Shown one piece after another: positions 5,809 to 56,948 of a DNA stretch of 64,000 bases. Positions within the stretch are counted from its first letter, which is position 1. Every line of letters begins with the position of its first letter. The position numbers were made by a program, and so were the translations under genes. Under the pieces are notes generated by a model. It did no database searches, had not been told where the DNA came from, and saw only the letters and a list, made by a program, of their open reading frames with translations. Source of the DNA: an uncultured Candidatus Pelagibacter sp. (GTDB lineage: Bacteria > Pseudomonadota > Alphaproteobacteria > Pelagibacterales > Pelagibacteraceae); NCBI GenBank assembly GCA_905612495.1, contig CAJQSF010000012.1, positions 13,147 to 77,146 on the forward strand, read 5' to 3'.

Positions 5809-5836
5809 TTGACAAAGTTAAATTAAACAGTATTTT
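5809..5836 (+). promoter_or_regulatory. Putative sigma70 promoter of the str operon
   Basis: TTGACA (5809-5814), 16 bp spacer, TATTTT (5831-5836) upstream of rpsL. Confidence 0.5.
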
Positions 5837-5842
5837 GACGAT

Positions 5843-5946
5843 GTTTTTGGTTGGAATGTAGTACCTACTTTAAGGAACTAAACGCTGCCACAAAATAACC
5901 TGTCAGTTATTTTCATTCAAAAATAAATTAATTAATTAAAAAATTT
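5843..5946 (+). promoter_or_regulatory. Putative structured rpsL 5' leader
   Basis: Long intergenic region for this genome; perfect hairpin AAAATAAC-ctgtca-GTTATTTT at 5892-5913. Confidence 0.4.
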
Positions 5947-40970: not shown

Positions 40971-42341
40971 TTGTCTAAAGTATTAAAATTAACCAAAGAT
41001 CCCATTTGGGAACTACTTAGAAAAGTAACAATTCCAGCTAGTGTTGGTTCTTTATTTCAAACATTTTATAATCTAGTTGATACTTGGTTTGCTGGTAGAA
41101 TTTCTGCTGAAGCTATAGGTGCTATCGCTAAATCATTTCCTATATATTTTGTAATAATTGCTGTTGGTGTTGGTATTGGTGCTGCAACAAACTCATGCAT
41201 TGGTAATTTATTAGGTGCAAAACAAGATAATAAAGCATCATTGTTAATCGCTCAATCTGTAATCTTTGCACTGATTATTTCTGTTGTTGTCACATTGTTT
41301 GGATTAAATGCATCTAATTTTCTTCTAACAGTAATGGGCTCTGATGCAGCTAGTATAGTTTTAACAAGAGAATATTTAGATATAATTTTTTATGGTACTT
41401 TCATTGTAATGATTCAAATCTCTTTAAATGGAGCCTTGAATGCTCAAGGAGATACTAAAAGTTATAGAAATGTTTTAATATTTAGCTTCTTTTTAAACAT
41501 ATTTTTAAATCCATTATTTATATGGGGATATGGAATTGTTCCAGCTTATGGTATAGGTGGTCTTGCTATAGCAACTGTAATTGCACAGTCCGTAGGTACT
41601 TTTTATTTAGCGTATAAAATCTACGCATGTAAATTGAAAAAGTATCTATCAATTAAATGCTTTATTCCTAAATTAATATTATTAAAAGAATTATTCACGC
41701 AAGCGTTACCTATTATGATTAGCATGCTGTTTATTGGTGTAGGTATTTTTAATATTCTATATTTTATTGGTCAATTTGGTGATCTTGCAACAGCTGGTTA
41801 TGGTGCAGCCTTAAGAGTGGAGCAAGTTTTTTTATTACCAGTTATTGGATTGAACACTGCAGTACTTTCTATTGGTGGACAAAATTTTGGTGCTAAGAAT
41901 TATGATCGTATAAGAGAATTATATTCTAAAGCTCTATTATTCGGATCATCTTTTATGGCTATAGCAGGTGTTATATTATTTTTTGGTGCAGAGTTTTTTG
42001 TATCTCAATTTACAGATAACCAAGAAGCTATATTTCATGGTGCTATATATTTAAGAATAGCTGCATTAATTGCGCCTGTTTACCCTGTGTTTTTTATAAC
42101 TACAGCTGTATTCCAAGCTGTTAAGAAACCTATCTATAGTCTTTATTTAAGTGTTTTAAGGTTATCAGCTTTACCTTTCTTGTCTCTTTGGTATGTAATT
42201 AATATTAAAGGTGGGGATTACTCGGATATATTCTACACTATAATGGTAACCAATTGGTTTATAGGTATTGTAGTAATTATATTCATTGGATATTTTTTAA
42301 ATAATGTTTTTAAACAAAAAAAAAATCATTTTAGTTATTAG
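40971..42341 (+). CDS. MATE-family efflux transporter
   Basis: YNLVDTWFAG, GDTK, LNPLFI, GQNFGA; about 12 TM. Confidence 0.93.
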   Translation: MSKVLKLTKDPIWELLRKVTIPASVGSLFQTFYNLVDTWFAGRISAEAIGAIAKSFPIYFVIIAVGVGIGAATNSCIGNLLGAKQDNKASLLIAQSVIFALIISVVVTLFGLNASNFLLTVMGSDAASIVLTREYLDIIFYGTFIVMIQISLNGALNAQGDTKSYRNVLIFSFFLNIFLNPLFIWGYGIVPAYGIGGLAIATVIAQSVGTFYLAYKIYACKLKKYLSIKCFIPKLILLKELFTQALPIMISMLFIGVGIFNILYFIGQFGDLATAGYGAALRVEQVFLLPVIGLNTAVLSIGGQNFGAKNYDRIRELYSKALLFGSSFMAIAGVILFFGAEFFVSQFTDNQEAIFHGAIYLRIAALIAPVYPVFFITTAVFQAVKKPIYSLYLSVLRLSALPFLSLWYVINIKGGDYSDIFYTIMVTNWFIGIVVIIFIGYFLNNVFKQKKNHFSY

Positions 42342-42789
42342 TGTTTCTTCACTAATATTTTTCATAATTTTTAATCAAGTCAAATCACAAGATCTTAGAG
42401 TTGTAGATGGCGACACAATTCATCTTAATGGAGAAAAAATTAGATTTACCGGAATAGATACACCTGAGTTAAAACAAACTTGCCTTAAAGAAGGTATTAA
42501 AGATCCTTGTGGAGTTAAAGCAAAACAAATCCTAAATAATAAAATTGGAAAAAATGATGTTGAGTGTATTAGTGAGGGAATTGATAAATACAAAAGAACA
42601 TTAGCTGAATGTTTTGTAAATAATGAAAGTCTATCGAGCTATTTAGTTAGAAGTGGCTATGCATTTGCTTACAGAAGATATTCAAAAAAGTTTGTACAAG
42701 ATGAGGATTATGCAAGAATCAATAAAATAGGCATGTGGTCTATGGAGTTTGATTATCCTTGGGATTATAGAAAATCTAAAAAGAATTAA
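42304..42789 (+). CDS. Thermonuclease (SNase) family exported nuclease
   Basis: N-terminal hydrophobic segment; VVDGDT, IRFTGIDTPE, DKYKRTLA. Confidence 0.92.
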   Translation: MFLNKKKIILVISVSSLIFFIIFNQVKSQDLRVVDGDTIHLNGEKIRFTGIDTPELKQTCLKEGIKDPCGVKAKQILNNKIGKNDVECISEGIDKYKRTLAECFVNNESLSSYLVRSGYAFAYRRYSKKFVQDEDYARINKIGMWSMEFDYPWDYRKSKKN

Positions 42790-42797
42790 AGCTATAT

Positions 42798-42937
42798 GGG
42801 GCGTTCTGTTACCCGGTGCCCCAGACCGTGCTTCTATAATCCTTATTTTGCAACAGGGTTGCCTTAGCAAATAGCAGAAGTTTCAACTAAATTACACCCG
42901 TATTACGCCCAGCATTTTAGTGCTAGGGTACCGGTTC
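42798..42937 (+). repeat. Junction repeat R1 (core plus right arm only; left boundary)
   Basis: 38-bp core at 42798-42835; right arm ATAATCCTTATTTTGCAACAGGGTTG...GCAAATAGCAGAAGTTT; no left arm. Confidence 0.95.
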
Positions 42938-43891
42938 ATGAAAAAGATTTTAGGGATCCTAGTTCTGGGTTTGTTGTGGTGCAATGCTTTACCAGCCAAA
43001 ATTCTTAATATAGAAAACAAAATACAAATAGAGGTTCCATCTAGTCATAAGTTTATCAAATATGACAATGAAGAGGTAAGAGAGTCTATTGATGAATTTA
43101 CAGATTCTATAGACGGAATGGAGATAGATCTCTATCTAGTTGGTCCTAGCAAATATGTGGATTTTGAAAAAGCAATGATGGATGGAGAAGATCCAATGGA
43201 TAATGAATACGTAAAAGCAATAATGAAAAAATTAGAAAAAAAAAATTTTCAAAACGAAGATAAGGCTCTGAAATGGATTATCTCTGAATCAAAAAAAATA
43301 ATGAAAAAGGAGAAGATTGACTTCATCACATATATACTTATTTCAAATAAAACTCTGATAGAAATGCTACCAAATGATGATGAAATTGTTGATATGTTAA
43401 CAGAGCTTCAATCAATGAATAATTCAGAGTTAATTCAACAAACAAAAGAAATTAAAAAAGAGATAGCAACTTTGGAAGGTGCTAATAAACAAAGGATTTT
43501 AGCCGGACCTACTTCATTTACATATAATAAGTTTAAAATTGCAAAAAATGAATATGGAAATTTATTTTTAAAAGGTCCCAGTAAATTTTTTATGGCAATT
43601 AATGAATACTTAACAATAGATGCAGTATTGAATGTTTATTTGGCAGAGCATAACAACAAAACTTATTTTTTTATATCAGCGTGTTACGTGAACTGTTCTA
43701 AATTTAGTAATAAATTTGATAAAATGATAAAACCTACGTTTTCAACAAATGTGCAAACTCAAAAATCAAAAAGTAGTTTGTCTGGTGATAGTAATTTAAC
43801 TGAACAGTTAAAAGCTTTAAGTGAACTATATAAATCTGGAGCTTTAACTAAAGAAGAGTTTACAAAAGCAAAAAAGAAACTTTTAAACTAA
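42938..43891 (+). CDS. Exported hypothetical protein with C-terminal SHOCT-like domain (cassette 1)
   Basis: MKKILGILVLGLLWCNA signal peptide (ATG 42938); ends LKALSELYKSGALTKEEFTKAKKKLLN. Confidence 0.85.
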   Translation: MKKILGILVLGLLWCNALPAKILNIENKIQIEVPSSHKFIKYDNEEVRESIDEFTDSIDGMEIDLYLVGPSKYVDFEKAMMDGEDPMDNEYVKAIMKKLEKKNFQNEDKALKWIISESKKIMKKEKIDFITYILISNKTLIEMLPNDDEIVDMLTELQSMNNSELIQQTKEIKKEIATLEGANKQRILAGPTSFTYNKFKIAKNEYGNLFLKGPSKFFMAINEYLTIDAVLNVYLAEHNNKTYFFISACYVNCSKFSNKFDKMIKPTFSTNVQTQKSKSSLSGDSNLTEQLKALSELYKSGALTKEEFTKAKKKLLN

Positions 43892-44108
43892 AAATTACGC
43901 CCAGAGTACGCTCAAAAATAATCCAAACACCAATCAGCATTATAGATAAAGAATGGATTAGTTATTAAGGGGCGTTCTGTTACCCGTTGCCCCAGACCGT
44001 GCTTCTATAATCCTTATTTTGGAACGATGTTGAAACACTGAAAGCCAGAAGTTGTTACTGAATTGTGCCACTATTGTGCCAAGGATTATTGTGCTAGGAT
44101 CAGGGTTC
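43892..44108 (+). repeat. Junction repeat R2 (left arm, core, right arm)
   Basis: Core at 43969-44006 with 1 mismatch to R1; left arm AAACACCAATCAGCATTATAGATAAAG; TTGTGCCA direct repeats at 44063-44081. Confidence 0.95.
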
Positions 44109-45341
44109 ATGAAAAAACTTTTAGGGATCATCATTCTTGGTTTGTTGTTAAGTGGGAACGCTTATGCAGATGTTAATGAACCTGGAGTAACGTCTATTGC
44201 AGGGTGTGATAGTGGTCTTAAATCGGTAAACCAAAAATTTATAAAAAAACATTTAAAAAAATTATCAAAAAAAAATGAAACTAGTGTTCTCTATGCCAGT
44301 TGTGATTATGATAATTATTCTTGGGCAGTTAATAAAGGCAAGGACTTAGAAAAACTTCATAAGAAAACATATAAACAATGTACGAAATATGCCGAGAAAC
44401 ATACGGGCAAAGAATGTTATTTGTATGCAGTTAATGAAGAAATTGTTTGGAAATACGACAAGGCTAAAGCATCCACCATAGCAAAAACTAAAATAGCAGA
44501 AGCAAGTGTGTTAATAGAAAAAAAAAAAGAATTAGATAAGAAACCAGGAAGATTTTTTGAAGATCAACCTGATGTAAGTGATGATTTTCAATTCCATTTA
44601 ATTTATTTTTTAGACAATAAAACTAAAGATAAGGAAAGAGATATATCTGGATATATTGAGAAAGAAATGAAAAAAGCTGATGATGCTTTTTTTAAAATGA
44701 CTAAAAACAAACAAAGATTTAAGTTTGATTATAGAGAAGATGGAAAACTAGATGTGACTTTCGTTAGAATGGATAGAAAAGCAAGAAGTGGTGGATGGAA
44801 TGTAAATTATCCAGATTATTATCTAACAAAAAATGGTTTTAATAACCCTAAAAAAATGTATTTATCTTTTACCGACTCTGCTAGCGGAGATGGGGGACAA
44901 ATGGGCCCACATCATGGGTATATTTTTATAGGTAAAGCAGGCTCTCAGTATCCTCAAATTATAATTCATGAAATGCTGCACGGTTTAGGTTTTGCTATGC
45001 CTTGCACAATAGGAGTACAAGATGGAGCCCACATGGGTTCTGGAATTTTAGCACGGGGTGGAGGATTACAACTTCCAAAAGCACTTTATGGTCATGATGA
45101 TTCAACATGTCCAGATTTAAAAGACTCTGTTTATTTAACCCCAACATCAGACAACCCTTTTGATCCTCTACCTATTGCATGTGCTTTAGGACAAATGAAA
45201 AGAGGCAGTCCCCCAGGTAATTTTGAAATTCCTGCTAGATACACCCATAAAAAACTACTCAAAGGTAGAAAGAATGAGTGGTGTACATATAATGTCCATA
45301 CTTATGCTAAAGATGATTGGTTTAAACAGTGGAAAAAATAA
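44109..45341 (+). CDS. Exported putative zinc metallopeptidase (cassette 2, gene 1)
   Basis: MKKLLGIIILGLLLSGNAYA signal peptide (ATG 44109); Cys-containing N-domain; HEMLHGLG (HExxH) at 44967-44981. Confidence 0.75.
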   Translation: MKKLLGIIILGLLLSGNAYADVNEPGVTSIAGCDSGLKSVNQKFIKKHLKKLSKKNETSVLYASCDYDNYSWAVNKGKDLEKLHKKTYKQCTKYAEKHTGKECYLYAVNEEIVWKYDKAKASTIAKTKIAEASVLIEKKKELDKKPGRFFEDQPDVSDDFQFHLIYFLDNKTKDKERDISGYIEKEMKKADDAFFKMTKNKQRFKFDYREDGKLDVTFVRMDRKARSGGWNVNYPDYYLTKNGFNNPKKMYLSFTDSASGDGGQMGPHHGYIFIGKAGSQYPQIIIHEMLHGLGFAMPCTIGVQDGAHMGSGILARGGGLQLPKALYGHDDSTCPDLKDSVYLTPTSDNPFDPLPIACALGQMKRGSPPGNFEIPARYTHKKLLKGRKNEWCTYNVHTYAKDDWFKQWKK

Positions 45342-46326
45342 TCTTAATTATTATATCTTTATTTCTAATAACTAATGCTTTTGCAGACGAATGTTATACT
45401 TCATCTTTAGACACAACACCTGTAATTCTTGAGTCAGATAAAAAACCTGGTAGGTTTTTTTTAGATCAGCCAGATGTCAATGATGATTATCAAATTCATA
45501 TTGTTTACTCACTTTTAAAAGACTCTAAAGATAAAGAAGGAGACATTAATGGAGCTATAGAAAAATGGATAGAAGCATCTGATAAATATATTTTAAAAAC
45601 TACAAAAAAAGCAAATGAAAAATCTGATTTTAAAAATGGTATAGCTCAAAACATAAAATGGGACAGAAGAAAGGATGGAAAATTAGATATTAGCTTTATT
45701 AGAATAAATAAGACTAAAAAAGAAGTAAAAAAATCCCCCTCAGGAAGTTGTGGAAATGTTTTTGGCAGAACAATAGTTAATGCAGGATTTAATAACCCTA
45801 AAAAAATTTATTTTAATTTTGGAGATTATTCTTTTAAAGAATGGCCTTACTCTGGTGGTTTTCCAATATTTAGTATATTCAATAAACATCAAAAAAAATA
45901 CCCTCTTAAAAAAGTGAATTCGGATATTTTGTTTTACATGAGGTTATTCATGCAATGGGAGGTATTTTTACCTGTTCACCAAAATATACTAAATATGTAC
46001 ATAATACAAAAAAAACTAGTGATTTGATGAGTAGTGATGGTGACGGTAGAAACAATACATTGGACCCAAAGAATGATGACTATTGGGGTCATAATAATAA
46101 AAGTTGTCCGGATATGCAAGACAGTGTTTACTTTACACCAACATCAGATACTCCTTTTGACCCTTTTGAAGTCACATGTTTGCCAAAAGAAAAATGGAAA
46201 TTTACAAAACATGATTATAAAAATATTAAAGATATAAGAGGTACTGGTGAAATGTGCTTTTATAAACGTAGAGATGTTTCAGCCCCGTGGGAAAATGAAC
46301 TTGGAATATTTCGGAAATTTAATTAA
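45329..46326 (+). pseudogene. Frameshifted paralog of the upstream HExxH peptidase (cassette 2, gene 2)
   Basis: ORFs 45329-46027 and 45955-46326 each align to 44109-45341 (DKKPGRFFxDQPDV; CPDxxDSVYxTPTSDxPFDP); one extra A in the A6 run at 45908-45913 fuses them and restores HEVIH. Confidence 0.8.
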
Positions 46327-46334
46327 AAAAATTA

Positions 46335-47327
46335 ATGAAAAAACTTTTAGGGATCGTGGTTCTGAGTTTGTTACTGAGTAGTAATGTTTATTCTAAAACA
46401 ATAGTGGTTAAAGCTAATCCAGAAAAAGGTTTTAATTTTCCTTATTTGTTAAAAACTTCAAAAAAAACTTCAGATGCAAAATATTTAATTGTTGAGTCAA
46501 ATAACACTGGTAACGGTAAATCAATAAAAGATATGACTAGTAAAGCTAAAAAGTCTCTAGGTTGGGTTTTGGGTTCTGATATTGCAAAAAAATTAAATTT
46601 TCCTTTATTAATGCCTGTTTTTCCATTCGCTACTAAAGAAATTGAAAAAGATCTACCCAATTTAAAATGGCATTATTATTTTCCACAATTAGATAGCGAC
46701 ACTATAAAAATAAATAATAATAAATACAAAAGAATTGATTTGCAGTTAATTGCCATGATTGACGATGCAAGAGAAAGATTGTTGAAAGAAAATAATCAAA
46801 GTATAAATGAAAAGGTTATTTTTACTGGTTTTTCATCATCCTCTTTATTTGCAGCAAGATTTACTTTTTTAAATCCAGACAGAGTATCAGTTGCAGTTGG
46901 TGGAGGAATAGGAGGTTTGCTACCTGTTCCAGCTGATAAAATTGATGGAATTGAAACTATATACCCTATTGGAACGTATGATTTTGTAAAAATTACTGGA
47001 AAAAAATTTAATCTAGAAGAATACAAAAATACACCTCAATTTTACTGGCAAGGAACAAAAGATAAATCAAATCCATTTAGGAAAGGTGCTGAAGATTTAA
47101 CAGATAAAGAGTTTGGAATAGTAAAAAAACTTTTTGTAGATGGGCTACCTTTTGCATCAAGTCCTGTTTCTTTAGAAGTTAATACTGTGATGTGGAAAAA
47201 TTCTCAAAAATATATAAATCAAATTGTAGATAATGTTAAATTTGAAAGCCCAAAAAACTTAGGACATCAAATAGATAATAAAATGCTTCTTAAAAGTGCA
47301 AAATTCATAAAAGAAAACTTAAATTAG
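46335..47327 (+). CDS. Exported alpha/beta-hydrolase-like protein (cassette 2, gene 3)
   Basis: MKKLLGIVVLSLLLSSNVYS signal peptide; FTGFSSSS nucleophile-elbow-like motif, GTKD, C-terminal GH. Confidence 0.6.
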   Translation: MKKLLGIVVLSLLLSSNVYSKTIVVKANPEKGFNFPYLLKTSKKTSDAKYLIVESNNTGNGKSIKDMTSKAKKSLGWVLGSDIAKKLNFPLLMPVFPFATKEIEKDLPNLKWHYYFPQLDSDTIKINNNKYKRIDLQLIAMIDDARERLLKENNQSINEKVIFTGFSSSSLFAARFTFLNPDRVSVAVGGGIGGLLPVPADKIDGIETIYPIGTYDFVKITGKKFNLEEYKNTPQFYWQGTKDKSNPFRKGAEDLTDKEFGIVKKLFVDGLPFASSPVSLEVNTVMWKNSQKYINQIVDNVKFESPKNLGHQIDNKMLLKSAKFIKENLN

Positions 47328-47339
47328 GATTAATTTATA

Positions 47340-47555
47340 AATTGTGCCACTAGTGTGCCAAAGGTCTACTTAAGGAATAATCATCATCATATATAAAGAT
47401 AAGTAGGTGAGTATGAAGGGGCGTTCTGTTACCCGGTGCCCTGGACCGTGCTTCTATAAACCTAATTTTGTAACAAAGTTGCTACAACTTAACCTAGAAA
47501 CTATATAAAGTTCTATACAGATTGTATGTTGATTTTGTGCTAAGTTTTTTAATTC
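47340..47555 (+). repeat. Junction repeat R3
   Basis: Core at 47418-47455 with 2 mismatches to R1; left arm begins AATTGTGCCACTAGTGTGCCA. Confidence 0.95.
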
Positions 47556-48173
47556 ATGAAAAATGTTTTAGGAATTATATTTTTTATCTTATTTTGCAAC
47601 CTTGCATCTGCAGCAGACAAATATGAAGGTGCAGGTGAATTAAAACTCGGTGATCCTGATATTAATGTATTTATGGATTACATAAAACCTCCTGCTGGTC
47701 AAGTACCAATGATATTTTTAGTATTGTCAGAAAATGGTAAAGCTATCTGGTCAACTTACTGGTATTGTCCTGAAGGTAACTGTCAAACATTAAACAAAAA
47801 CCGAGCATCTATTATGTGCACTCAAGATGCAGAGAAATTTTATGAGAGAACGATTACTGAAGAATGCAAAATTTTTGCAAGAAGAAGAACTATCGTTTGG
47901 AAAAATGGAATAAATACTGGAAAAGGTAAAGTTTCTAGAGTTAAAAGTAGATGGAAAAAAAATGAGGTTATGGCGAAATTAGAAGAACTTGGTTTTCTAG
48001 GTAACAGCACATCATCAATCGATACTACTAAACCTAAAATTACTGAGAAGAAAAAAGAAAATAAGAAATCAGATGATATTGCTAGCCAAATAAATAGTCT
48101 AAAAAAGTTGTTAGATGATGGTGTTATTTCAAAAGAAGAATTTAAGAAAGCTAAAAAAAAAATATTAAATTAG
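47556..48173 (+). CDS. Exported Cys-containing hypothetical protein with SHOCT-like tail (cassette 3, gene 1)
   Basis: MKNVLGIIFF..ASA signal peptide; ECKIFARRRTIVWK; ends LKKLLDDGVISKEEFKKAKKKILN. Confidence 0.85.
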   Translation: MKNVLGIIFFILFCNLASAADKYEGAGELKLGDPDINVFMDYIKPPAGQVPMIFLVLSENGKAIWSTYWYCPEGNCQTLNKNRASIMCTQDAEKFYERTITEECKIFARRRTIVWKNGINTGKGKVSRVKSRWKKNEVMAKLEELGFLGNSTSSIDTTKPKITEKKKENKKSDDIASQINSLKKLLDDGVISKEEFKKAKKKILN

Positions 48174-48174
48174 T

Positions 48175-49116
48175 TTGAAAAAAATTTTAATAATAATATT
48201 ATTTAGTTCCTTGATTTCCACAATCGTAAATTCAGATATTAAACAAAGATATTCAATAGGAGAAAAAATTACTAATGAGGTTATTTTAGATAATAAAATA
48301 AGTATTGATTTGAGTGATGGCGTATGGGAAGTTGTTGAAAGAACAGGATGGAGATGGGGCAACTATACAGGAGAATATATTTTTATAATCAAAGCTAATG
48401 AAAAGGAAATTGTCGAAAGTATATCGCTTAGTTTTTTAAATACAGGTGGCAAGAGAATAGCAGATGTAAATTCATGGTTATATGAAGTTGTATTTGTAAA
48501 TAAACACGACGGATGTTACAAAAGACCTGAGTATTACAAGTTAGAATTGTTTCACAAAGGAGCAACAATAAATTGCATGATAATATCTCACACAGATATC
48601 AATAAAGAGATTTATAATCCAGATGATAAAGAGTTTGCTTATCTAAATGAAAAAATAGTTAGTTGGATTCATGAAAATTCAATAGAGTTACCTAAGATTA
48701 TGCTTACATCTGAGCATATTTTTTTTTCAAGGTCGGCATCTTCAAAGTTTTATGGTTATTCACACTCTATAAACCCTAAATTTTTTGAAGGTCCAAAAAC
48801 AAAATTTATAACAGAAGATACAAGTGAATATCATCCATTTAATATAGACAAATATCCTATACATGAAAAATTTATGAATAACTTTATGTCATCACAGTCA
48901 TTAATACATGTAAGTTTAGAAGAAAATATAGGAATTAAAGATTATCAAAAACTTGAATTGTCAAAATATATAAACAAAAAAACTGAAACTAAAAAATCTA
49001 ATGGTACAGATAAAGGTGATATTGTTAGTCAGATAAAAGACTTAAAAGAGTTATTAGATACTGGTGTAATAACACAAGATGAATTTGTTAAGGCAAAGAA
49101 GAAAATTTTAAATTAA
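48175..49116 (+). CDS. Exported hypothetical protein with SHOCT-like tail (cassette 3, gene 2)
   Basis: TTG start, MKKILIIILFSS signal peptide; ends LKELLDTGVITQDEFVKAKKKILN. Confidence 0.85.
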   Translation: MKKILIIILFSSLISTIVNSDIKQRYSIGEKITNEVILDNKISIDLSDGVWEVVERTGWRWGNYTGEYIFIIKANEKEIVESISLSFLNTGGKRIADVNSWLYEVVFVNKHDGCYKRPEYYKLELFHKGATINCMIISHTDINKEIYNPDDKEFAYLNEKIVSWIHENSIELPKIMLTSEHIFFSRSASSKFYGYSHSINPKFFEGPKTKFITEDTSEYHPFNIDKYPIHEKFMNNFMSSQSLIHVSLEENIGIKDYQKLELSKYINKKTETKKSNGTDKGDIVSQIKDLKELLDTGVITQDEFVKAKKKILN

Positions 49117-49310
49117 AAATTTTGAGCTATGTGCGAACAAATGTAACTCAAAGAATAATCAACATTATAAATAAAGAGAAGTAGAAGAGTGTGTAGGGGC
49201 GTTCTGTTACCCGGTGCCCCAGACCGTGCTTCTGTAATCCTAATTTTGTAACAAAGTTGCTTTCGCAAATAGCAGAAGTTTGGGCTGAATTACGGATTGA
49301 TTGTGGATCA
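49117..49310 (+). repeat. Junction repeat R4
   Basis: Core at 49196-49233 identical to R1; right arm shares GCAAATAGCAGAAGTTT with R1. Confidence 0.95.
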
Positions 49311-49362
49311 ACTATCTTATTATAAACTTGATAACCAGCTATTAAAAATGTATCTATAAATT

Positions 49363-49728
49363 ATGTTAAAGACTTTCATCGCAATACTTTCTTTAGCTGC
49401 ACTTGTTTCTTGTGCTTCTATTGTTAATGATCCAACTGTGCCTGTTACACTATCTTTTAGTGATGGTAGCAGCGGAAACTGTAAGTTAACTAATAAACGT
49501 GCAGCTTATAACGTTGAAGTTCCAGGTACAAATATGATCAGAAGATCAGACGATCCATTAAGATATGATTGCGTAACAAATTCTGGCAAAAAAGGATATG
49601 GAAGCATACCAAGCGAAATAGAAGGCGCAAAATTAGCTGGAAGCGTTCTAATAGACTTTGGAATCACCGACTCAATTACGGACAAACATAGAACCTATAC
49701 TCCTAACTTTGTAGTACCTATAAAATAA
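49363..49728 (+). CDS. Small hypothetical lipoprotein (cassette 4)
   Basis: MLKTFIAILSLAALVS-C lipobox-like signal. Confidence 0.8.
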   Translation: MLKTFIAILSLAALVSCASIVNDPTVPVTLSFSDGSSGNCKLTNKRAAYNVEVPGTNMIRRSDDPLRYDCVTNSGKKGYGSIPSEIEGAKLAGSVLIDFGITDSITDKHRTYTPNFVVPIK

Positions 49729-49833
49729 AATTAGGGCTGTGCTACGTATAAAAGCAATTTAAACACCAATCAGCATTATAAATAAAGAAAAGTAGGAGAG
49801 TTGTAAGGGGCGTTCTGTTACCCGGTACCCCAG
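49729..49833 (+). repeat. Junction repeat R5 (left arm plus truncated core; right boundary)
   Basis: AAACACCAATCAGCATTATAAATAAAG arm, then 27 bp of core (49807-49833, 1 mismatch), then unrelated sequence. Confidence 0.92.
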
Positions 49834-49849
49834 CTTTCTAATTAATCTT

Positions 49850-50110
49850 TTATTTGATAGTTTTGAATAGTCTTTCACCCAAAGGACTGACTGGGTCTTG
49901 AGGTGTAGGTTCAATATTAGTTTTTTCTTCAACAATACTTAATAGCTTTTTAGCAAGTCCTTTACGCCTGAAGATTGGATTAACGAAAATATACTCAACT
50001 TCAGCCTGTTTATTATATCTAACAAAACCAAGTGTAGTATTAATATTTTTAAATGTAACAACACCGTCACTAAACGAAATATCATAGTTTGTGCTATTTA
50101 ATTCATTCAT
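49850..50110 (-). CDS. Small GNAT-family acetyltransferase-like protein
   Basis: IFVNPIFRRKGLAKKLL acetyl-CoA-binding motif A. Confidence 0.75.
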   Translation of the reverse strand: MNELNSTNYDISFSDGVVTFKNINTTLGFVRYNKQAEVEYIFVNPIFRRKGLAKKLLSIVEEKTNIEPTPQDPVSPLGERLFKTIK

Positions 50111-56857: not shown

Positions 56858-56948
56858 GGAAGCGTGGGTGAGTTGGCTTAAACCAGTAGTTTGCTAAATT
56901 GCCGTAGGGGTAACTCTACCGTGGGTTCGAATCCCACCGCTTCCGCCA
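56858..56948 (+). tRNA. tRNA-Ser(GCT)
   Basis: GGAAGCG/CGCTTCC acceptor stem, anticodon loop TTGCTAA, long variable arm, GGTTCGAATCC, encoded CCA. Confidence 0.96.

Follow-up and report, generated by a model that had tools for sequence, protein, structure and literature searches.

An array of four cassettes between a nuclease and an acetyltransferase gene

The stretch of DNA analysed here (64,000 nucleotides (nt) with a G+C content of about 30%, hereafter the window) belongs to an uncultured Candidatus Pelagibacter sp. (G000; GCA_905612495.1), whose assembly comprises 845 kb in 60 contigs and is an estimated 63% complete. Between an exported staphylococcal-nuclease-like gene (42304-42789, + strand; Pfam SNase, 2e-18) and a small GNAT acetyltransferase gene (49850-50110, - strand; Pfam) the window holds an array of four gene cassettes, convergent with the latter gene and delimited by direct copies of a short core sequence, and it is the composition and probable origin of this array that we describe. 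A search with the 27-nt core, in which up to 3 mismatches were allowed, yielded exactly five matches in the window, all on the + strand and starting at 42798, 43969, 47418, 49196 and 49807 (0, 1, 2, 0 and 1 mismatches, respectively), whereas 100 dinucleotide-preserving shuffles of the window yielded none. According to repeat finding and alignment, copies 1-4 extend over at least 38 nt, and copy 5 diverges past 27 nt. The start-to-start distances of 1171, 3449, 1778 and 611 nt correspond to units of 0.6-3.4 kb each, in which there is no integrase, excisionase or replication gene.

The geometry of the units is nearly fixed. In the table of open reading frames (ORFs), the last stop codons end at 43891, 47327, 49116 and 49728, i.e. 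78, 91, 80 and 79 nt ahead of the next core, and the first ATGs lie at 42938, 44109, 47556 and 49363, i.e. 140, 140, 138 and 167 nt past the core start. The internal cores carry conserved arms on both sides, which we refer to as P (ahead of the core) and P' (behind it), and the terminal ones carry an arm on the inward side only. Copy 1 (42798-42840) follows the nuclease stop codon after 8 nt and has no left arm of its own, so that it reads B-O-P', with the nuclease side as the chromosomal B arm and a conserved leader that reaches to the first ATG (42841-42937; repeat families and alignment) as the P' arm. Copies 2 (43969-44011), 3 (47418-47455) and 4 (49196-49233, without mismatches over 38 nt) read P-O-P', and copy 5 (49807-49833), which consists of the 27 nt common to the chromosomal pseudo-attB, reads P-O-B', with the GNAT side as the B' arm. 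The P arms of the four cassettes, all on the + strand like the cores, occupy 43892-43968 (with a TACGC unit at a period of 11 nt from 43896), 47328-47417 (with the 7-nt unit TGTGCCA at 47343 and 47354), 49117-49195 and 49729-49806 (the latter two delimited by repeat finding and alignment).

The cargo likewise lies on the + strand. According to the ORF table and domain searches, cassette 1 encodes a 317-amino acid (aa) exported protein with a C-terminal SHOCT domain (42938-43891). Cassette 2 encodes a 410-aa exported protein with an HExxH motif (44109-45341), for which a relation to reprolysin-like metalloproteases is a weak lead only, followed by a split paralogue of this protein (45329-46326) and by a 330-aa exported alpha/beta-hydrolase-like (or esterase-like) protein (46335-47327). 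The two overlapping ORFs of the split paralogue (45329-46027, 232 aa, and 45955-46326, 123 aa) align with the N- and C-terminal portions of the 410-aa protein at 39% and 59% identity, respectively (BLASTP), and probably represent a frameshifted tandem copy. Cassette 3 encodes two exported proteins of 205 and 313 aa that each end in a SHOCT domain (47556-49116), which brings the number of cargo proteins with such a tail to three, and cassette 4 encodes a 121-aa lipoprotein-like protein (49363-49728). All seven intact genes and the split paralogue start with signal-peptide-like or lipobox-like N-termini, as judged by eye. The cargo is one of flexible cell-envelope or periplasmic genes; its proteins are mostly unrelated to one another, received no names from NCBIfam and showed no recombinase domains in domain searches. 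Homologues turn up in other settings, namely a close homologue of the 410-aa protein in an array on metagenome contig L172, and homologues of the 330-aa and 313-aa proteins on L190. The sequence-only reading of this locus had described the five direct copies, the sizes and internal distances of the units, the two-sided and one-sided arms and a set of exclusively + strand genes for exported proteins, all of which is borne out by the core search, the ORF table and the alignments.

Independently of the cores, the coding starts of the signal peptides share 78-85% DNA identity among otherwise unrelated cassette genes (42935-42994, 44106-44165, 46332-46391 and 47553-47585), among them that of the gene at 46335, which lies inside a cassette and is not preceded by a core of its own. 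As the SHOCT tails are likewise held in common, the cassettes look modular at a second level.

The core is the 3' end of the host tmRNA gene

The core is the reverse complement of the last 38 nt of the genome's own ssrA (100% identity), and in copies 1 and 2 the correspondence runs to 43 nt, perfect in copy 1, and stops at the last base of the gene. This ssrA, a two-piece transfer-messenger RNA (tmRNA) gene (Rfam RF01849, 223 bits), is located on contig C35 and not on the contig of the window, and neither ARAGORN nor Rfam found a tmRNA gene within the window. At gathering thresholds Rfam reports nothing within the array interval; it is in a permissive scan that the minus strand of copies 1-4 matches the 3' end of alpha_tmRNA, with E values between 3e-6 and 2e-3 (1.3e-4, 0.002, 1.7e-4 and 3.3e-6 for copies 1 to 4), and that copy 5 gives a similarly weak match. 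The sequence-only reading had considered the att-like element to be non-canonical, which has to be revised, since ssrA is a classic textbook target of tyrosine integrases. The site between the nuclease and GNAT genes is an ectopic 27-nt look-alike of the ssrA end, in all probability a pseudo-ssrA secondary attachment site.

Within the complete set of contigs the core occurs six times, namely in ssrA and in the five copies of the array. Most genomes of the genus contain a single core, that of ssrA, and some contain up to six, whereby the extra copies in relatives and metagenomes always flank variable genes. The core is therefore not a dispersed repetitive extragenic palindromic (REP) or terminator element without a link to variable genes, which the sequence-only reading had named among the findings that would refute it. 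Related to this is the possibility that a gene and its upstream region were locally duplicated in tandem, or that a REP or terminator repeat was dispersed, without any mobility being involved. Neighbouring units do indeed have similar leaders and similar signal-peptide DNA. Nevertheless, the cargo proteins are mostly unrelated, relatives possess an empty site (see below), and three junctions folded as single-stranded DNA, on both strands, were no more stable than shuffles (z between -0.9 and +0.6), while a terminator scan gave nothing above shuffles and no terminator-like sites at the junctions. Copy number, empty site and folding already contradict such an origin, to which we attach next to no probability.

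Two further observations concern RNA genes. The only ones detected in the window at gathering thresholds are the SAR11-associated rpsL small RNA (Rfam RF01823, 90 bits; 5835-5927) and tRNA-Ser(GCT) (56858-56948). Elsewhere, myophage-like contigs from IMG/VR (L049-L056, among them one of 242 kb) carry full-length permuted tmRNA genes whose 3' end includes a 24-nt core (e.g. L049:10556-10850), and also encode ribonucleotide reductase, AdoMet decarboxylase, SufE and CtaG. Such a phage-borne ssrA would be a potential landing site for ssrA-targeting elements, and none of the copies on L049-L056 is occupied.

Empty and occupied sites in relatives

The nuclease gene was recovered from 121 of the 150 genomes sampled from the genus, and the sequence downstream of it was read. 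In the closest relative (G081, nuclease 96% identical) the site is empty: the nuclease stop codon is followed by the same 8 nt, a single 27-nt core that is matched by copy 5, the sequence found downstream of copy 5 (one base differs) and the GNAT gene, so that its flanks match the outer flanks of array copies 1 and 5. The site is also empty in G067 and G141, with 2 and 6 mismatches in the core, respectively. Other genomes are occupied to a different extent, with one unit of two genes in G146, one unit of three genes in G041 and four units in the window genome; in both G146 and G041 the unit begins, next to the nuclease gene, with a full core and ends, towards GNAT, with a core of 27 nt. The GNAT flank is shared by G081, G067, G146 and G041. 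The gene for the 330-aa hydrolase-like protein is particularly informative: together with its P arm it closes the array in G041, where the core and the GNAT flank follow, whereas in the window genome it is followed by the core and cassette 3, which implies that the extra cassettes entered exactly at the core. Both the empty sites and the variation in cassette number and content, with breakpoints inside the core, support the succession B-O-P', P-O-P' and P-O-B' that had been put forward as the mark of serial integration.

In more distant genomes, and in fact in most genomes of the genus, there is no core at the nuclease locus, where the nuclease gene abuts an ABC permease gene or unrelated core-less inserts. 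Examples of the latter are G063 (L064) and G069 (L063), where the interval between nuclease and GNAT holds a methyltransferase-like ORF in one case and a long ORF with a perfect 105-nt tandem repeat in the other. Insertion at this position is therefore not confined to DNA with a core, and the position is a hot spot of a general kind.

Junctions of the same type at ssrA and elsewhere

Directly behind the true ssrA of the complete genome G146 come a cassette-type P arm and a signal-peptide gene; further core copies in this genome border on pilin-like genes and on a gene in the vicinity of a tRNA cluster. A scan of metagenomes with a 25-nt core matched at least 120 stretches, of which 80 were read. 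Among these, the succession P arm-core-ssrA was seen at least 7 times, P arm-core-P' arm at least 6 times and a core joined to other sequence on one side and to a P' arm on the other at least 9 times. Three contigs (L130, L162 and L176) show a single cassette inserted at ssrA with a core on each side (core-P'-cassette-core-ssrA), and L177 reproduces the GNAT-side end of the array. In relatives and metagenomes alike, ssrA stays intact where cassettes sit at it.

Individual cassettes are also found at more than one locus. Cassette 4 recurs in G041 at 607 kb, about 60 kb from the nuclease locus of that genome, with 90% DNA identity over window positions 49265-49833. The similarity extends up to the final base of the 27-nt core and no further, i.e. 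with the breakpoint at the core that mobility of the cassette would predict. A second hot spot is the spacer between recA and alaS, which is empty (about 100 nt) in G063, G067 and G069 and filled in G041, G146 and G081 (L041; L110, L111), the insertion being at the recA terminator. G041 has two cassettes in this interval and the insert in G146 consists of pilin-like genes; in the window genome both recA and alaS are missing from the 63%-complete assembly.

The surroundings of ssrA itself differ as well. The left and right neighbours of ssrA in G041 (L043) lie about 735 kb apart in G146 (L037, L040). One of them, a MazG-like gene, adjoins a core copy with pilin-like cassettes in G146, which points to a large rearrangement whose breakpoints coincided with core copies.

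Integrase-bearing elements on the same core

No match to the tyrosine integrase family (PF00589) was found on the contig of the window, in agreement with the sequence-only reading (transposase and cas genes were not searched separately), and the two matches that the genome does have are on contigs C4 and C42. The latter was considered as a resident helper and rejected, as it adjoins a tRNA gene and is not near any ssrA core. It is a phage-type integrase of 425 aa (L048:820-2230; PF00589, 3e-14) directly upstream of the tRNA gene and beside a trigger-factor gene, and marks a separate tRNA-targeting island.

A scan of 300 genomes of the genus for PF00589 returned mostly one Xer-like gene (about 325 aa) per genome. 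In most of them this is the sole tyrosine recombinase, which raises the question of whether the host's chromosome-dimer recombinase acts on the core, as in Xer/dif-type module arrays (i.e. integrative mobile elements exploiting Xer (IMEX) or pdif modules). In line with this, the nuclease locus lies near mid-chromosome in complete relatives (e.g. at 669 of 1376 kb in G041) and at a local maximum of cumulative GC skew in the window. The core, however, lacks dif-like half-sites (by eye), its primary copy is the end of ssrA, far from mid-chromosome, and it is absent from this locus in most genomes of the genus; a search of the genome with dif patterns gave chance-level matches only and did not locate dif itself. 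We consider this explanation very improbable.

Tyrosine recombinase genes beside the same core are present in other genomes and on metagenome contigs, as the sequence-only reading had anticipated. In G177 a 343-aa integrase gene starts 62 nt from the 3' end of ssrA and is followed by small ORFs, a gene for a 733-aa DUF5906 protein, about 830 nt of non-coding sequence and a partial ssrA copy. The identity block between its two att copies, 26-27 nt, is the same block as that of the secondary site in the window. Related loci among genome contigs were limited to the query's own record. In the protein database 588 relatives of this integrase were retrieved at E <= 1e-20, and contigs of about 6 kb account for many of these. 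On L132 and L188 full integrase genes lie 94-96 nt from a core of the variant found in the window genome, which is joined to ssrA. One element of about 6.2 kb is represented by L114-L119 in circularly permuted form. In L116 a core is found near both ends, at a distance of 6063 nt, and the ends of L113 and L119 overlap by 127 and 123 nt, with one core each some 46 nt upstream of the integrase gene, as expected of the attP of a free circular or concatemeric form. About 6 kb in size and carried by Pelagibacter hosts, the integrase-bearing relatives combine a tyrosine integrase with a primase/helicase-like gene and assemble as circles. No integrase was found beside the cores in five close relatives (G216, G217, G263, G156 and G218).

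Some metagenome contigs combine features of both kinds. L134 is a hybrid in which a cassette-type junction is followed by two cargo genes, an 86-aa N-terminal integrase fragment and a core; units beside ssrA on L143 and L155 also contain truncated integrase genes, and L129 and L141 have integrase-type P arms and no integrase gene. The truncated genes imply that decay of autonomous elements does yield integrase-less units, and decay of this kind is described in models of the additive islands of Prochlorococcus (bioRxiv 10.1101/2020.12.28.424599). Each unit of the array could accordingly be a separate integrase element that lost its integrase and replication genes, in which case the cassettes would be immobile fossils. 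This is the main rival of mobilisation in trans. Independent decay should, however, leave varied debris, yet the four units and dozens elsewhere share one integrase-free P arm, one P' arm and fixed distances to the genes, and the window contains no integrase fragment. In addition, the same arms on many unrelated cargoes would require either spread after the loss of the integrase or repeated exchange of cargo. We therefore regard a purely fossil array as unlikely.

Arms and their repeats

The arms are less conserved than the core, with 54-65% pairwise identity among the four P arms of the window versus 0-2 mismatches per 38 nt. What the P arms of both kinds have in common is a pair of 5-8 nt repeats with a period of 11 nt that begins 71-78 nt ahead of the core. 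It was seen in 8 of 10 P arms of the integrase type (0.1 expected from shuffles) and in 12 of 26 of the cassette type (0.4 expected), and is lacking in the chromosomal flank next to copy 1. The repeat unit varies between elements while its position and period are constant, and one cassette arm (G146, L038) has the same unit as the integrase element of L188. In integrase elements the repeat is located just upstream of the integrase start codon and in cassettes just past the last stop codon, and the distances from gene to core are comparable (46-96 nt in autonomous elements, 78-91 nt in cassettes). On the basis of this architecture the period-11 repeats are candidate arm-type binding sites. The P' arms carry a conserved short palindrome, GCAAC-NNN-GTTGC, about 52-64 nt past each core start (e.g. 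that of copy 1), for which a role in protein binding or as a 5'-leader hairpin is conceivable.

Conserved sequence on both sides of the core also allows for an explanation without any site-specific recombinase, namely that the junction module of about 120-150 nt serves as portable homology for RecA-dependent exchange after DNA uptake. The junctions are long and conserved on both sides, the complete cassette-bearing genomes G146 and G041 show just one Xer-like recombinase each, and the DNA modules common to unrelated cassettes (signal peptide and SHOCT tail) suggest frequent homologous exchange; recombination at conserved positions is also what SAR11 papers favour (bioRxiv 10.64898/2026.10.07.757358). 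For the first insertion this explanation is nevertheless disfavoured, as homology at the empty site is limited to 27 nt and the two outer boundaries coincide exactly with the edges of this block. Moreover, the identity block stops at the last base of ssrA, which is typical of integrase att sites, the same 26-27-nt block serves integrase-bearing and circular elements, and the core is far more conserved than the arms. We judge an array built by homologous exchange to be improbable, somewhat more so than a fossil one.

A putative route of cassette capture

That the array was built by site-specific recombination at the pseudo-ssrA site is, taking the above together, very probable. In the mechanism that we propose, each cassette would carry its own attachment site, consisting of the ssrA-end core (27 nt common to the chromosomal site, up to 43 nt common to ssrA) between the conserved P and P' arms. 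A circular cassette would recombine with the chromosomal core by means of a tyrosine integrase that recognises the ssrA end, and every insertion would regenerate a usable core on which further cassettes could stack. Likely suppliers of the integrase would be satellite-like elements of about 6 kb that encode an integrase and a DUF5906 primase/helicase-like protein; such elements, which are frequent in marine metagenomes, integrate at ssrA via this very 27-nt core. That so many unrelated cargoes have uniform arms devoid of an integrase speaks for a spread that followed the loss of the integrase, and we lean, by a modest degree, towards cassettes that are non-autonomous units moved in trans.

Several observations weigh against this proposal. 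Neither a cassette circle nor a helper was seen for the window genome, G146 and G041 bear cassettes and showed no integrase beyond their Xer-like recombinase, and among the 80 metagenome loci examined there was no cassette-only circular contig, terminal overlaps being confined to integrase-bearing elements. Three exact scans of viral contigs in IMG/VR (24-nt and 19-nt core patterns) gave no partial-core attP, the matches being solely full-length tmRNA genes on myophage-like or other contigs. The truncated integrase genes described above belong here too, as does the degenerate state of the period-11 repeat in the P arms of cassettes 3 and 4 of the window. In other genomes the homologue of cassette 4 occurs in either orientation relative to the cores, and the recA-alaS island of G041, which contains cassettes with ssrA cores, has at its ends a duplicated 21-nt portion of the recA terminator instead, so that not every island boundary is a core. 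Finally, the proposal offers no explanation for the origin of the 27-nt ssrA look-alike between the nuclease and GNAT genes.

At a more general level the array may belong to a cassette-capture system of SAR11, in which mini-elements would retain only cis-acting sites (the ssrA-end core, the arm repeats at about -75 and the P' leader), parasitise the ssrA-specific integrases of the satellites of about 6 kb and seed look-alike att sites that become fixed hot spots of envelope 'metaparalogs'. We put this forward as a tentative generalisation that, in its full form, we consider a little more likely to be wrong than right.

SAR11 genomes are well known for their near lack of mobile-element genes, and yet contain many small variable cassettes at fixed positions. 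The mechanism behind this variation has been called unresolved (PMC11796062; bioRxiv 10.64898/2026.10.07.757358). The present locus provides a concrete candidate for it, with a 27-nt site, defined arms, a natural empty site and a candidate integrase family with free circles, and suggests how streamlined SAR11 bacteria swap genes for surface proteins. If the cassettes are indeed mobilised in trans, the flux of envelope genes in the most abundant bacteria of the ocean would hinge on integrases borne by satellites or phages, and look-alike att sites would account for the recurrence of variable regions at fixed positions that are remote from tRNA genes. If the more general cassette-capture system exists, it would constitute a general route of gene flux in genomes that seem to be devoid of mobile-element machinery.

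Comparison with known systems

The sequence-only reading had characterised the array as functionally like an integron with different sites. The functional part of the likeness holds: as in integrons, small cassettes form ordered one-way stacks, each with a recombination site of its own, by addition at a fixed point. The likeness ends there, as the array has no resident intI, attI or Pc, and a promoter scan of it found fewer sites than in shuffles. The sites are not attC, in agreement with the check on their folding (the z values given above show no hairpin of the attC type); the core is a tmRNA end, and the orientation of cassettes relative to the core varies elsewhere. Rather than an integron, the array resembles non-autonomous elements that have accreted at an att site of the tRNA/tmRNA type.

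A nearer parallel is formed by the cis-mobilizable elements (CIMEs) that accompany integrative and conjugative elements (ICEs) in Streptococcus, in which DNA without an integrase is enclosed by the att sites of an autonomous family and arrays arise by successive integration at regenerated att sites. Here, too, the units are bounded by the att sites of an autonomous family and have no recombination or transfer genes of their own, and the array very probably arose by successive integration. Catalysis in trans by a helper integrase, the remaining feature of such elements, may apply as well, with the P-arm repeat architecture and the occurrence of the same cassette at different loci pointing in that direction. 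Unlike ICEs, the putative helpers are satellite-like elements of about 6 kb and not conjugative, the cassettes form a large family with conserved arms of its own, and mobilisation is here putative. From the small elements with an integrase and a primase/helicase themselves, the cassettes of the window differ in having none of the hallmark genes; tmRNA is not named as a target in the main text of the paper on such elements.

Islands at tRNA or tmRNA genes (Islander-type) share with the array the direct repeats that copy the 3' end of the target, the block that ends at the last base of the gene and the tandem stacking, and in relatives and metagenomes the same cassettes sit at an intact ssrA; tandem ssrA islands are known from Dehalococcoides (PMC3146451) and tmRNA islands from Pseudomonas (PMC12595487). 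The array differs in being located at an ectopic 27-nt look-alike and not beside ssrA, and in its integrase-less units of 0.6-3.4 kb. An intact target gene at one end, absent here, is present for the sister cassettes in G146, L130, L162 and L176, and an internal integrase next to the att site, likewise absent here, is found in G177, L132 and L188.

Also comparable are the additive flexible and tycheposon-remodelled islands of streamlined marine bacteria, with examples in Prochlorococcus (bioRxiv 10.1101/2020.12.28.424599), Methylophilaceae (PMC10872708) and SAR11 gMED (PMC11796062). Their cassettes are set apart by repeats that correspond to the terminal 20-48 nt of a tRNA or tmRNA gene, and they have few or no integrases. 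They abut the tRNA or tmRNA gene, however, and are described as heterogeneous debris, whereas the units of the array are uniform and miniature, have arms on both sides and also occur away from the target gene. A limited literature search found no description of such a system in SAR11. From the described cases the array differs in its ectopic 27-nt mimic of the target, in its miniature uniform units with arms on both sides and in a family of junctions that is distributed over several loci per genome.

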